Shown in pieces: positions 32,510-35,657 of a DNA stretch of 64,000 bases. The translations under genes were made by a program, and so were the position numbers. The notes under the pieces are model-generated. The model did no database searches. It was not told the origin of the DNA and saw nothing but the letters and a program-made list of their open reading frames with translations. Numbering within the stretch: the first letter of the stretch is position 1; each line of letters starts with the position of its first letter. Origin of the DNA: Polyangiales bacterium. Its GTDB lineage: Bacteria; Myxococcota_A; Polyangia; Polyangiales; Ga0077539. The stretch covers positions 416,001 through 480,000 of the forward strand of contig JBGARZ010000001.1 of assembly GCA_044229975.1 (NCBI GenBank). The letters are read 5' to 3'.

Positions 32510-32563
32510 TGAAAAATAATTGATCACCGTGCTTGACGGATATCGGATGTGTCGGTTATCCCT
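32510..32563 (+). promoter_or_regulatory. Putative sigma70 promoter with AT-rich UP-like element for the leader/tRNA operon
   Basis: AAAAATAATT at 32512-32521; TTGACG at 32533-32538; weak -10 (TATCCC near 32557). Confidence 0.5.
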
Positions 32564-32591
32564 TGTGGGCACTCAAGGAAGTGCCTTCGCC

Positions 32592-32720
32592 ATGAACCTC
32601 CTCTTCCTCCACTCCCGCTGCCCTTCACGATCGTCGTCCGGACCGTCATCCAGTCGGTCCAGTCGCTCGTGTTGTTGCGTCGACTGCGGGAGCAGGAGCC
32701 GCGCGCTTTCATCGGGATAA
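32592..32720 (+). CDS. Putative Ser/Cys-rich attenuator leader peptide (42 aa)
   Basis: MNLLFLHSRCPSRSSSGPSSSRSSRSCCCVDCGSRSRALSSG: 15 Ser, 5 Cys; AAGGA upstream; directly precedes a hairpin and Ser/Cys tRNA genes. Confidence 0.8.
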   Translation: MNLLFLHSRCPSRSSSGPSSSRSSRSCCCVDCGSRSRALSSG

Positions 32721-32750: not shown

Positions 32751-32793
32751 GAGGCCGGCTCCTCCCCGACGGGAAGGGTCGGCCTCTCTCGTT
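32751..32793 (+). terminator. Attenuator terminator-like hairpin
   Basis: GAGGCCGGCTCCTCCC-CGAC-GGGAAGGGTCGGCCTC (15 of 16 positions pair, including G-U), followed by TCTCGTT. Confidence 0.75.
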
Positions 32794-32896: not shown

Positions 32897-32969
32897 CACG
32901 CCGCTCACCAGTGTGGAGCACCGGTCTGCAAAACCGGGCGTACGGGGGCAGCACCCGTCGGCGTGTCCA
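32897..32969 (+). tRNA. Atypical tRNA-Cys(GCA)
   Basis: Acceptor CACGCCG/CGGCGTG, U73, encoded CCA; anticodon arm CCGGT-CTGCAAA-ACCGG; T-arm ACGGG-GGCAGCA-CCCGT (non-canonical loop); irregular D-arm. Confidence 0.8.
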
Positions 32970-32987: not shown

Positions 32988-33073
32988 GGAAGGGCAAGCC
33001 GATTGGTTGACGGCACCTGTCCTGAAAATAGGCGAGCGTGATTGCCTTGGGGGTTCGACTCCCTCCCCTTCCG
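32988..33073 (+). tRNA. Divergent tRNA-Ser(UGA)
   Basis: Acceptor GGAAGGG/CCCTTCC, G73; D-stem GCCG/CGGC; anticodon arm CCTGT-CCTGAAA-ATAGG (C33); long variable region; T-loop TTCGACT. Confidence 0.85.
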
Positions 33074-33137
33074 CCCACTCTTGTTCATTGAAGGAGACGA
33101 CATCATGTGACGGCATCGAGACGAGTGTGATTCCTCT

Positions 33138-33222
33138 GGAAGGGCAAGCCGATTGGCTGACGGCACCGGCTTCGAATACCGGCGAGCGATGAGCCTTGGG
33201 GGTTCGACTCCCCCTCCTTCCG
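33138..33222 (+). tRNA. Divergent tRNA-Ser(CGA)
   Basis: Acceptor GGAAGGG/TCCTTCC, G73; anticodon loop TTCGAAT (CGA at 33173-33175); T-arm GGGGG-TTCGACT-CCCCC. Confidence 0.85.
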
Positions 33223-33245
33223 CCGTTTCTCCGCGTTGTTTCTTT

Positions 33246-33331
33246 GGAGGATAGGGCATCTGGTCTGCCGAGCGGTCTGCTACAGCGTCGCCCGCGGAAG
33301 CGGGTAGTCGGTTCGATTCCGGCATCCTCCG
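33246..33331 (+). tRNA. Divergent tRNA-Ser(GCU)
   Basis: Acceptor GGAGGAT/ATCCTCC, G73; D-stem GGCA/TGCC; loop CTGCTAC; variable arm GCCCGC-GGAA-GCGGGT; T-arm GTCGG-TTCGATT-CCGGC; one G-G mismatch in the anticodon stem. Confidence 0.82.
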
Positions 33332-33350
33332 CTGTTTCCTTTGTATGTTT

Positions 33351-33438
33351 GGAGGCTACGACATCGGGTGTGTCAGACACGTTGGAAGCGTGTGGCTCGT
33401 CGCATGGCGAGCAGTCGGTTCGAGTCCGGCAACCTCCG
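33351..33438 (+). tRNA. Divergent tRNA-Ser(GGA)
   Basis: Acceptor GGAGGCT/AACCTCC (one C-A), G73; D-stem GACA/TGTC; ACACG-TTGGAAG-CGTGT; variable arm GCTCGTC-GCAT-GGCGAGC; T-loop TTCGAGT. Confidence 0.85.
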
Positions 33439-33510: not shown

Positions 33511-34830
33511 TCAGCGTCGACGGCTGCTGGCCGGCCCCCGCGGACGCTTCGACGGAGCGGCGACGTAGCGACTGACTGCGGATCGTCGCGGATGCGCGCG
33601 CAGGACGCAGGTGACCCTCGCCTCGTCGGCGTCGAACTCCGGCGGCGGGCTCCCGAGGTCCGCCATGGTGCGGCGCATGGTCGGCACGCCCTGCCCCTCC
33701 CCCTGGGCCAGCTTGAGCTGGAGGAAGAACCACGCGAGCGACTGGTTGCGCCACCGCGGCGACTCGCGCCCCTCGCGCAGCGCCTCCAGCGACACGCCGC
33801 GGAGCAGCGCCCCCGGAGACACCGTCTCGACGCGGTCGACGAAGGCCGTCACGCGCGTCGGGTCATCCAGCTCGTAGTCGCGGTGCACCAGGGCGTTGAT
33901 CGCTGCCTCGTGGAGCGCCCGCCGTGGGTACGTCTCGACGTCCGGCACGTCGACGTCGGTCTTCTCGAAGAGCCGCACCACCTCGGCGTCGAGCAGCGCG
34001 AGGAGGCGACGGGCCTGCTCGACGAGCGCGCCGGTGAGCTCGTGGCGCTCCGCGGTTGATTCGGAGCGATCGACGCCCCGGTAGCGCGAGAAGAAGGTCA
34101 CGGCGCCGGGGAAGAAGCGCGTCGGGTCGCGCCCGAAGAGCAGCACCGCGAAGTTGCGTGGCCGTCGCACACCCGTGAGCGCCTCGGTCACGCACAGCGA
34201 CGGCACGAGCGCGTGCAACCGAACACCGTCACCCAGCAGGTCCTCGACGCCGAGCCCATCGTCGACGCGCCCGATGCGGAGGAGGGTGTCGCGCAACGCC
34301 AGCAGGTCGAGGTCGGCGACCGTCGCCGTCGCGCACGGGCGACGATCCCAGGGCTCCAGCGCCCCCTTCCGCGTCAGCAGCTCGCGCAGCACGCCGTTGC
34401 GCGCCTCTTCCGTGCTCGACCCGCGCCGGACGTGGTGGAGCGTGTTTCCGTCGGCGTGCCGGAACATGTGCGCGTGCGGCGTCGCGGGCTGTACGAACAC
34501 CAGCACCCGGCGGTCATCGGTGTCCGCGGGCAGCTCGTGGACGAGCGGAGTGATCGCCGGGGAGACCCGATCGCGGCAGCGCGTGAGCACCATGCCGACG
34601 ACCTCCTTCAGTCGCGTCGCCGTGAGGCCAACGCGCAGCAGCTTCGGGAAGCCGTGCTCGTCCTTCGTCTCGCTGGCGCCGCACACCACGTAGCCGCCGC
34701 CGAGGTTGGGGAGGTCATTGGCGAAGGCCGAGAGCGTCGCCACCACGCCGTCGGGGCTGGCGACGTTTTCCTTCCACTCGACCTGCTCGCTCTCGCGAGC
34801 TGCCAGCTCCCGCAGATCGATCGCGACCAT
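33511..34830 (-). CDS. Schlafen/AlbA_2-domain protein with HATPase_c_4-like C-terminal domain
   Basis: ESEQVEWKE, SAFAN...GGGYVVCG; YPRRALHEAAINALVHRDY, SPG, RN...GQG. Confidence 0.85.
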   Translation of the reverse strand: MVAIDLRELAARESEQVEWKENVASPDGVVATLSAFANDLPNLGGGYVVCGASETKDEHGFPKLLRVGLTATRLKEVVGMVLTRCRDRVSPAITPLVHELPADTDDRRVLVFVQPATPHAHMFRHADGNTLHHVRRGSSTEEARNGVLRELLTRKGALEPWDRRPCATATVADLDLLALRDTLLRIGRVDDGLGVEDLLGDGVRLHALVPSLCVTEALTGVRRPRNFAVLLFGRDPTRFFPGAVTFFSRYRGVDRSESTAERHELTGALVEQARRLLALLDAEVVRLFEKTDVDVPDVETYPRRALHEAAINALVHRDYELDDPTRVTAFVDRVETVSPGALLRGVSLEALREGRESPRWRNQSLAWFFLQLKLAQGEGQGVPTMRRTMADLGSPPPEFDADEARVTCVLRAHPRRSAVSRYVAAPSKRPRGPASSRRR

Positions 34831-35657
34831 CACGCACCCCGCCCGAGCCGGCGGTGCGCGAGCGACGGCAGCGACGCCCTCACCGACGCCGTGCGCGCCG
34901 GGTCGATGTCCGCCACCACGAAGCCTTCGCCCTCCGCCCGCTCGGCCAGCACCACGCCCCACGGGTCGACGATCATCGCGTGGCCCCACGTCGTGCGCCC
35001 GCCGGGATGCGTCCCCCACTGCGCCGCGGCCAGCACGTGCGACTGCGCCTCGATGGCCCGCGCCCGCAGCAGCAGCTCCCAGTGCGCGCGCCCTGTCGTC
35101 GCCGTGAAGGCCGCGGGCACCGCGAGCACCGTCGCGCCATCGTCCACCAGCGCGCGGTACAGCTCCGGGAAGCGAACGTCGTAACAGACGCTCAGCCCCA
35201 ACCGCCCGACGGGCGAGTCGACGGCCACCACCGTGTTACCCGGTGCCGTATTGCGCGACTCGGTCAGCACCGGCCCGCCGGGCAGGTCGATGTCGAAGAG
35301 GTGGATCTTCCGGTAGCGCGCGACCACCACACCGTCGGCATCGAGCAGCGCCGCGGTGTTGTACGTCCGCGCGTCCTCGGTGCGCGCCTCGGGGACGCCG
35401 CCCCACAGCACCCACGCGCCGGTCTCGCGCGACAGCGCCGCCATCCGCGCGCCGCACGGCCCCGACGGAACCTCTCCCACGACATACCAGCCCGCGACCG
35501 CCCCGCGGCCCTCGTCGGCGCCCATGTAGAGGGCGTTTTCGGGCATCACCACGAGCGACGCGCCCGCCGCCGCGGCCTCGCGACCGAGCGCCTCGGCCGT
35601 CGACACGTTGCGCTCGACGTCCTCGCCCGACGTGAGCTGCACCACCGCGGCCTTCAC
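34830..35657 (-). CDS. Carbon-nitrogen hydrolase (Nit1/deaminated glutathione amidase-like)
   Basis: MPEN, YRKIHLFD, SVCYDVRFPE, PAAFT...GRAHW, RARAIE, WGHAMIVDPWG. Confidence 0.92.
   Translation of the reverse strand: MKAAVVQLTSGEDVERNVSTAEALGREAAAAGASLVVMPENALYMGADEGRGAVAGWYVVGEVPSGPCGARMAALSRETGAWVLWGGVPEARTEDARTYNTAALLDADGVVVARYRKIHLFDIDLPGGPVLTESRNTAPGNTVVAVDSPVGRLGLSVCYDVRFPELYRALVDDGATVLAVPAAFTATTGRAHWELLLRARAIEAQSHVLAAAQWGTHPGGRTTWGHAMIVDPWGVVLAERAEGEGFVVADIDPARTASVRASLPSLAHRRLGRGA

Follow-up and report, generated by a model that had tools for sequence, protein, structure and literature searches.

The window, by which we mean the whole 64,000-nt stretch of Polyangiales DNA analysed here, belongs to a genome (G000) of 10.0 Mb and about 71% GC. 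It contains a small cluster of tRNA genes that is preceded by a Ser- and Cys-rich open reading frame (ORF) and followed by a convergent gene, with the following features in window coordinates:

32512..32562 (+): promoter-like site, with an A-rich upstream element, -35 TTGACG (32533-32538), 18-nt spacer and -10 TATCCC (32557-32562)
32575-32581 (+): possible Shine-Dalgarno (SD) sequence AAGGAAG, inside a small hairpin
32592..32720 (+): leader ORF of 42 codons, 15 of them Ser and 5 Cys
32686..32701 (+): predicted antiterminator strand, leader codons 32-37, complementary to the terminator 5' arm
32751..32793 (+): terminator-like hairpin, stem 32751-32786, -29 kcal/mol, with a weak pyrimidine tail
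32897..32969 (+): tRNA-Cys(GCA), with non-canonical D-arm and T-loop (GGCAGCA), U73 and encoded CCA
32988..33073 (+): tRNA-Ser(UGA), scaffold A (ARAGORN, cloverleaf parse, covariation)
33138..33222 (+): tRNA-Ser(CGA), scaffold A (same evidence)
33246..33331 (+): tRNA-Ser(GCU), scaffold B (same evidence)
33351..33438 (+): tRNA-Ser(GGA), scaffold B (same evidence; best matches in relatives are GCU genes)
33511..34870 (-), 5' end approximate: Schlafen/AlbA_2 + HATPase_c_4 gene, convergent and inside the same ~2.4 kb insert

Identity and structure of the spare tRNA genes

ARAGORN calls four tRNA-Ser genes, with anticodons UGA, CGA, GCU and GGA, between 32987 and 33441 (n=4). An earlier note on this DNA had described these four as a complete set; the four Ser genes stand, but the cluster consists of five genes, the tRNA-Cys(GCA) at 32897-32969 having been overlooked. 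The note also passed over the leader with its putative attenuator and the genome-wide pattern, both described below, which together with this gene make up the principal finding. In G000 this gene is called by neither ARAGORN nor Rfam. Homologues occur in G004, G005, G015, G019, G021 and G162, and the one in G019 is called tRNA-Cys by ARAGORN.

Cloverleaf parses agree with the earlier structural description of the Ser genes. Specifically, all four carry the SerRS identity elements G1-C72, G2-C71, A3-U70 and G73 and a long variable region of 15-20 nt. None has U8, position 8 being C, C, A and A in Ser(UGA), (CGA), (GCU) and (GGA), and position 38 is, in the same order, A, U, C and G. Ser(UGA) has C33, and the anticodon stems of Ser(CGA) and Ser(GCU) contain the mismatches C31-A39 and G30-G40, respectively, to which the parse adds an acceptor mismatch, C6-A67, in Ser(GGA). 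The missing CCA that the note had also emphasized is true of the spare Ser genes but is not distinctive, as all four housekeeping Ser genes lack it too; being ordinary in this genome, it was rejected as a special mark. All four spare genes parse with 7/5 acceptor/T stems, the 8/4 or 9/3 stems that mark serine-type allo-tRNAs being absent.

A complete canonical Ser set, with U8, lies elsewhere in G000 (C11, C14 and C32), which rules out a housekeeping role for the spare genes and upholds their reading as backups. The two sets also differ in score, with canonical Ser genes at 50.7-64.3 bits in the Rfam tRNA model (n=4) versus 30.1 and 26.9 bits for two of the spare genes, the other two being unlisted at E<=0.1. 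A search for SerRS gave a single match above the cut-off, so a second SerRS was rejected and the genome's one enzyme presumably charges the spare Ser tRNAs. Three side observations concern individual tRNA sequences. The housekeeping tRNA-Ser(UGA) (C11:142230-142314, -) has U73 in place of G73; a tRNA-Ile with a UAU anticodon, rare in bacteria, is present at C20:281741-281814 (+); and between Ser(UGA) and Ser(CGA), at window positions 33090-33110, an SD-like GAAGGAG is followed by ATG-TGA, an arrangement not seen in G004 or G005.

Stem pairs covary in both scaffolds, which argues that the Ser genes are not pseudogenes. In scaffold A (n=13 genes) 98.5% of stem cells are paired with 32 double changes, and in scaffold B (n=11 genes) 97.3% are paired with 21 double changes; 0/500 shuffles reach as high in either scaffold and slid controls give 39-66%. 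Compensatory changes affect 5/5 anticodon-stem pairs in scaffold A and 4/5 in scaffold B, and acceptor-stem pairs 1-5 never vary across the genes of both scaffolds. These data bear on the view that the genes are decaying relics or non-coding nuclease decoys behind an ORF that arose by chance. Such a view would account for the low Rfam scores, the single stem mismatches in three genes, the patchy presence among congeners (2/8) and the interruption of one Ser gene in G004. We nevertheless hold it to be very improbable given the compensatory anticodon-stem changes, the invariant acceptor identity pairs and the leader statistics described below (P=2e-4; 0/2000 shuffles). The decoy function that the note had offered as one option is disfavoured by the same invariant identity pairs and by the position of the genes behind a codon-matched leader.

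The note had also suggested duplication with anticodon switching. Across relatives, scaffold A occurs with UGA, CGA and GGA and scaffold B with GCU and GGA, so that switching holds, but the scaffolds are old array lineages and not the product of local duplication alone. Ser(GGA) of the window is likely such a switch, since in relatives it matches GCU genes best. Cloverleaf parses of the family's array tRNAs again show the lack of U8, the C33 and the unusual position 38, and these features were therefore not made for the window locus. An escape from anticodon nucleases is a plausible explanation of the odd Ser features.

The putative control region ahead of the genes

The -35 element and A-tract of the promoter-like site are kept in G004 and G005, and a similar promoter architecture precedes other extra tRNA clusters of G000. 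A consensus promoter/terminator scan reported one unrelated promoter-like site in place of this one, and 0 terminators, the U-run of the hairpin being too poor for that scan. Sequence and conservation together suggest the promoter assignment.

The leader ORF that follows holds a cognate codon for every anticodon of the cassette. Its Ser codons are TCC (4), TCG (4), TCA (3), AGT (2) and AGC (2), and its Cys codons are TGC (3) and TGT (2), with the genomically rare TCA and AGT making up only 3.3% and 1.7% of Ser codons. Among 19,201 small ORFs of equal length in the genome, 0.02% attain the leader's Ser+Cys fraction of 0.49 (P=2e-4). No dinucleotide shuffle (0/2000) reaches 20 Ser+Cys codons, and the other two frames of the leader contain 5 and 2. 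Overall, the leader contains 13/20 amino acids. The genes downstream are tRNAs only, with no gene for amino-acid biosynthesis or charging among them. T-box control was rejected, as the Rfam model RF00230 has no match in the window or the genome.

The hairpin is present 30-40 nt past the leader stop in 12/12 loci, at -26 to -35 kcal/mol and followed by a pyrimidine tail. At the window locus the leader tail forms a predicted duplex of -27.6 kcal/mol with the terminator 5' arm (2/500 shuffles as low), and in 12/12 loci the best such duplex falls within the last ~15 codons (-22.6 to -30.5 kcal/mol). This duplex beats shuffles at the 5% level in 7/12 loci, the window locus included, and is no better than shuffles in 5/12. 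In G016, where the hairpin arm has changed, the leader tail has changed to match.

We then modelled co-transcriptional folding with the transcript ended at the hairpin loop and a ribosome placed codon by codon. In G000 the arm is held by the leader tail with a probability of 0.44-0.63 when the ribosome is at codons 1-30 and of <=0.12 at codons 32-42. When the fold is restricted to RNA ahead of the ribosome, 12/12 loci show this trend, although sequence removal by itself lowers pairing. The untranslated G000 RNA is itself partly antiterminated in the co-transcriptional model (0.44), so that any slowdown may induce. The antiterminators of G004 and G005 form in this model at stalls on codons 5-18 and not at the Ser-Cys block (codons 20-24), where antitermination is restored only when RNA downstream of the ribosome alone is folded. 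Equilibrium folding with the full terminator shows no switch, since in the 5 modelled loci the hairpin persists for almost all positions of the ribosome; the switch must therefore be kinetic, and by analogy the mechanism is likely a kinetic attenuator.

A codon-matched sensor might instead act after transcription, through folding, processing or stability of the precursor, or via Rho, with no intrinsic terminator involved. The poor U-tract of the window hairpin would suit such action, as would several sister cassettes that lack a comparable hairpin and U-run, Tyr leaders whose CATCCGC is complementary to the tRNA 5' end, and the array loci of one genus in which a second promoter-like site lies just before the first tRNA. 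The window locus and 11 relatives, however, keep the hairpin, its fixed distance past the stop, the pyrimidine tail and the complementary leader-tail strand, and we consider control after transcription or via Rho unlikely compared with an attenuator.

Spare clusters elsewhere in the genome and in relatives

Extra clusters of divergent tRNAs were labelled by inspection of tRNA calls, and at nine of those in G000, including Cys/Ser, a promoter-like site is followed by a short ORF. The cognate fraction of the leader is 0.49 for Cys/Ser (P=0.0002), 0.40 for Tyr/His (0.0002), 0.60 for Asn/Lys/Arg (0.0015), 0.45 and 0.42 for two Glu/Arg/Asp clusters (0.009 and 0.02), 0.23 for Gly (0.017) and 0.10 for Tyr (0.043). 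The Leu (0.14, P=0.079) and Trp/Phe/Gln (0.09, P=0.11-0.15) leaders do not reach significance on their own. In the Leu leader CTG, CTT and TTG occur exactly once each, for anticodons CAG, GAG and CAA. Once two paralogous clusters are set aside, 7 non-redundant spare clusters remain; of the 5040 ways to assign their 7 leaders to their 7 tRNA sets, the true one ranks alone at the top.

Two further tests relax the selection. When promoters are ignored, a cognate-rich upstream ORF is found at 7/12 extra versus 3/35 housekeeping clusters, although 2 of these 7 extra-cluster matches differ from the promoter-linked leaders; this test dropped 13 of 85 ARAGORN calls, namely 12 without Rfam support and tRNA-Sec. 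When the whole genome is scanned for promoter plus ATG with no tRNA filter, 13 distinct ORFs are found, 7 of them directly before extra clusters and 0 before housekeeping tRNAs, with a pattern that was taken from promoters already known and that missed three leaders.

The sister cassettes vary in their details. By inspection, the Tyr/His, Glu/Arg/Asp, Leu and Asn/Lys/Arg cassettes have no comparable hairpin with U-run, and in the Tyr cassettes the leader CATCCGC is complementary to the tRNA 5' end. When 30 family genomes were searched with the DNA of the Asn/Lys/Arg cassette, all matches were to housekeeping tRNAs and no orthologous cassette appeared. In this cassette (L085:1460-1630, -) inspection shows a second small ORF that lies between the Asn and Lys genes and whose last residues, Lys-Arg-Lys, come just before the Lys and Arg genes. 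The three tRNA-Leu genes (CAG, GAG and CAA; L084:1220-1613, -) are just 73-76 nt and lack the long variable arm. At L083:520-850 (+) the first ORF past the promoter has 105 codons, with a Trp codon before tRNA-Trp, and runs through that gene; its end, which comprises a Gln-rich block and a Phe codon, lies just ahead of tRNA-Phe and two tRNA-Gln genes, the frame assignment being uncertain throughout. Directly after Tyr/His cassettes (L078:1400-2000, -; L079:870-1510, +; also L028, L034 and L074) lies a release-factor-like gene (Pfam RF-1, PCRF), which is split as CTT-TAG-C in one G000 copy and as CTT-TGA-C in the other. We take these splits to resemble the prfB +1 frameshift site, and a different release factor may be what the TAG form senses. 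A divergent tRNA-Arg(GCG) at L080:1886-3863 (+) is followed by short repeated elements and then by a TROVE/Ro60 gene 79% identical to the one in the G021 array.

Cassette matches were found in 2/8 congeners, 14/30 family genomes and 22/400 genomes of the order, relatives that are kin and not independent samples. Six congeners without the cassette have 39-50 Rfam tRNA matches versus 69 in G000. The Cys/Ser cassettes of G004 and G005 lie at a different site from the window's, and their promoter, ATG context, hairpin and leader ORF position are as in the window. Their leaders have 9/38 Ser+Cys codons in G004 (75/2000 shuffles as high) and 12/38 in G005 (3/2000 as high), and BLASTP gives no alignment between the G000 and G004 leader peptides. 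His/Tyr leaders are kept in both congeners and a Glu/Arg/Asp leader in G005. An insertion with a direct repeat of the anticodon arm on either side breaks the third Ser gene (UGA) of G004 (L012:1190-1375, -). In contigs from two DNA runs, the cassette is found at the position it has in the window. Among the changes listed for these contigs, those in the leader cluster in its first half, with the sole second-half change turning a Cys codon into a Ser codon; among the rows listed, deletions in X2 sum to at least 21 bases.

The VanW-like and CN-hydrolase genes on either side are direct neighbours in 6 of 7 congeners, and the cassette and the convergent Schlafen-domain gene therefore form an insert of ~2.4 kb. 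The Schlafen-domain gene is patchy in the family (4/30) and has an ExxxxExK-like motif, which we take to be significant for its protein. The spare tRNAs might accordingly be imagined as an antidote for the adjacent nuclease, the two having been inserted together as a toxin-antidote pair. The shared insert, absent from this site in 6/7 congeners, and the AlbA_2/Schlafen domain of the neighbour speak for such a pair, as does tRNA cleavage by prokaryotic Schlafens (PMC13056530, PMC13462974; excerpts). The former has no passage on Ser, RecG, HATPase or AlbA. Against a pair, the two closest homologues of the gene (64% and 58%) have no tRNA within 1.5 kb, BLASTN finds no match to it near the G004 and G005 Cys/Ser cassettes, one strain contig diverges directly past the last tRNA, and in a non-systematic look at the other eight cassettes no such gene was noticed beside them. 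A link of this gene to the tRNAs is not supported, and we regard the antidote explanation as highly unlikely.

In other genera of the family these tRNA types belong to long arrays that also contain an HNH gene and, in some cases, a TROVE gene. The stretches examined contain 14-22 ARAGORN calls, as against the five genes of the window cluster. Every family array with upstream DNA (9/9, which excludes G009 and G022, whose contigs end too early) is preceded by a leader of 69-96 codons that contains all 20 amino acids, with the same hairpin as at the window locus 30-40 nt later. The background rate of such all-20 ORFs is 0.75% at 60-72 codons and 4.1% at 80-100 codons, and shuffles reach 20 amino acids in 12-137 of 1000 cases. 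No leader was seen in G164 and G073, two arrays from another family, or in G168 and G288. A metagenome scan with the hairpin alone returned 2 loci. Both lie ahead of tRNA arrays, and at one of them the all-20 leader is complete, with 93 codons. With the short hairpin pattern, 6 loci were found in viruses, none with a tRNA beside it, and 2/401 class genomes were matched, a number equal to that of the reversed-pattern control; of the two class-genome loci, the one in G012 is a genuine leader locus that lacks tRNAs and the other is probably a chance match. A side observation in array loci with a first tRNA-Lys (L062:3850-3900, L063, L064 and L066) is a second promoter-like site, seen by inspection just before that gene and downstream of the terminator. 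In G019 it reads TTGAAG-16-TATAGT and includes a TTGAA-N7-TTCAA palindrome. Such a site could bypass the attenuator under a repressor.

The window's own genus has a leader of 48-52 codons ahead of its HNH gene, with 20/20 amino acids in G001, G004 and G005 (0-1/1000 shuffles), 19/20 in G000 and a version cut short in G002. No tRNA was found after the all-20 leader and HNH gene of G001 and G004, nor in G012, where the leader has 19/20; these all-20 or near-all-20 leaders with terminators before an HNH gene without tRNA are at L135, L136, L137 and L113 (G001, G004 and G012, with G002 cut short). In G000 the HNH gene is on another fragment (C21) and not at the window locus, and its HNH and TROVE genes match those of the family arrays at 67-74% and 62-79%, respectively. 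A locus at L081:355-1740 (+) combines a 19-of-20 leader and terminator with an HNH gene, a tRNA-Thr(CGU) and a YrlA-like RNA (40.5 bits, below the 69-bit cut-off), and is likely the remnant of an array. In an HNH tree, five genus-g1 genes form one group (88/94) and the family base is unresolved, so that the order from array to cassette is based on parsimony with an array-bearing outgroup. It is likely that an array under one general all-20 leader was split, in the window's genus, into amino-acid-specific operons with tailored leaders.

The all-20 leaders, some of which persist without tRNAs, also bear on whether the window leader is an attenuator for general translational stress, such as antibiotics or initiation failure, in which Ser/Cys richness is incidental or tunes sensitivity. 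The co-transcriptional model predicts antitermination wherever the ribosome stands before codon 31, and in part for RNA that carries no ribosome, as such a sensor would have it, and an Anabaena tRNA array responds to all ribosome-targeting drugs tested (PMC8421152, excerpt). Yet across clusters the composition of a leader follows that of its cassette (1 of 5040), the Ser/Cys enrichment is frame-specific and above base composition, and the rare codons TCA and AGT are kept. A general stress sensor is thus improbable in our estimation, and an attenuator tuned to Ser and Cys decoding is preferred.

Proposed mechanism and comparison with known systems

We consider it probable that the Cys gene and the four Ser spare genes are under a ribosome-sensed transcription attenuator, formed by the Ser/Cys leader and hairpin, that turns on when Ser or Cys decoding is slow. 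Transcription would start near 32570 and the leader would be translated. A ribosome that reaches codons 32-42 would cover the antiterminator strand, allowing the hairpin to form and transcription to stop near 32793. A ribosome delayed on the Ser/Cys codons (8-29) would leave this strand free to pair with the hairpin 5' arm, and polymerase would read through. The precursor would then be processed, CCA added to the Ser tRNAs, and these charged by the single SerRS. Restored decoding would shut the operon and close a feedback loop.

Although the leader reports slow decoding from any cause, the likeliest trigger would be the loss of working housekeeping tRNA by cleavage or modification. This trigger is favoured because extra tRNA copies repair tRNA loss and do little for amino-acid starvation. 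In Anabaena some array tRNAs are cleaved and housekeeping ones are not (PMC8421152, excerpt), which counts against a simple 'resistant spare' view. The locus is likely to belong to a backup tRNA set of the L-array type that has been split into amino-acid-specific operons, each probably gated by ribosome-sensed attenuation. The broadest form of this proposal is a codon-resolved tRNA homeostat, a divergent second tRNA set whose operons are switched on by stalling on their own codons, that replaces just the species destroyed by toxins or nucleases and that evolved by subdivision of an array gated by one 20-amino-acid leader; on this form our judgement is evenly divided.

Regulation of individual bacterial tRNA genes is described as largely unknown (PMC8421152, excerpt). 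If the attenuator is real, it would give a simple, testable answer, namely that a tRNA gene is regulated through a leader ORF that carries the codons it reads. Attenuation would then serve the supply of tRNA as well as that of amino acids, and cryptic tRNA arrays would have a second control route besides the TrcR repressor. With both general all-20 and tailored sensors in one family, leader content can be compared directly with cargo, and the short cassettes could serve as ready-made reporters of codon-specific tRNA damage.

Classical leader-peptide attenuators (trpL, hisL, thrL, ilvL and pheM) use a short ORF rich in the sensed codons. The window locus likewise has a short ORF between promoter-like site and genes, it covers two amino acids as do the thr and ilv attenuators, and the predicted antiterminator in its leader tail would compete with the terminator. 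Unlike the classical cases, in which enzymes are regulated, its products are tRNAs that read the leader's own codons, and several operons of this kind, each for other amino acids, occur together in one genome. Attenuators of synthetase operons include hisS leaders (PMC2965389, excerpt). T-box riboswitches resemble the proposed system in reporting tRNA status through antitermination, whereas sensing at the window locus, where no T-box was found, would need translation.

The L-array, or trn operon, of Anabaena PCC 7120 is also a patchy set of supernumerary tRNAs beside a full housekeeping set, and it shares an HNH endonuclease gene with arrays of the window genome's relatives (PMC8421152, PMC10272220; excerpts). 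Its tRNAs are induced and charged under translational stress, and it is controlled by the TrcR repressor (PMC8421152, excerpt). L-arrays are normally silent, and the TrcR-type operator of Anabaena is a direct repeat over the -10 box. The window cluster differs in having five genes and no long same-strand run, within a system of small operons with proposed RNA-level control. For whiB7, uORF composition sets what is sensed, and the whiB7/wblC uORF of Actinobacteria, a broad stall sensor with nearly all amino acids, is comparable to the all-20 leaders of the family arrays (PMC10274678, excerpt). In contrast to whiB7/wblC, which controls a transcription factor, the window leader is narrowed to Ser/Cys and stands directly before tRNA genes. 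The main texts of PMC8421152 and PMC10272220 contain no mention of a leader or attenuation, and our literature search, which covered mainly open-access main texts, found no leader-peptide attenuator of tRNA genes. Each half of the proposal, L-array induction and uORF attenuation, has a precedent of its own.
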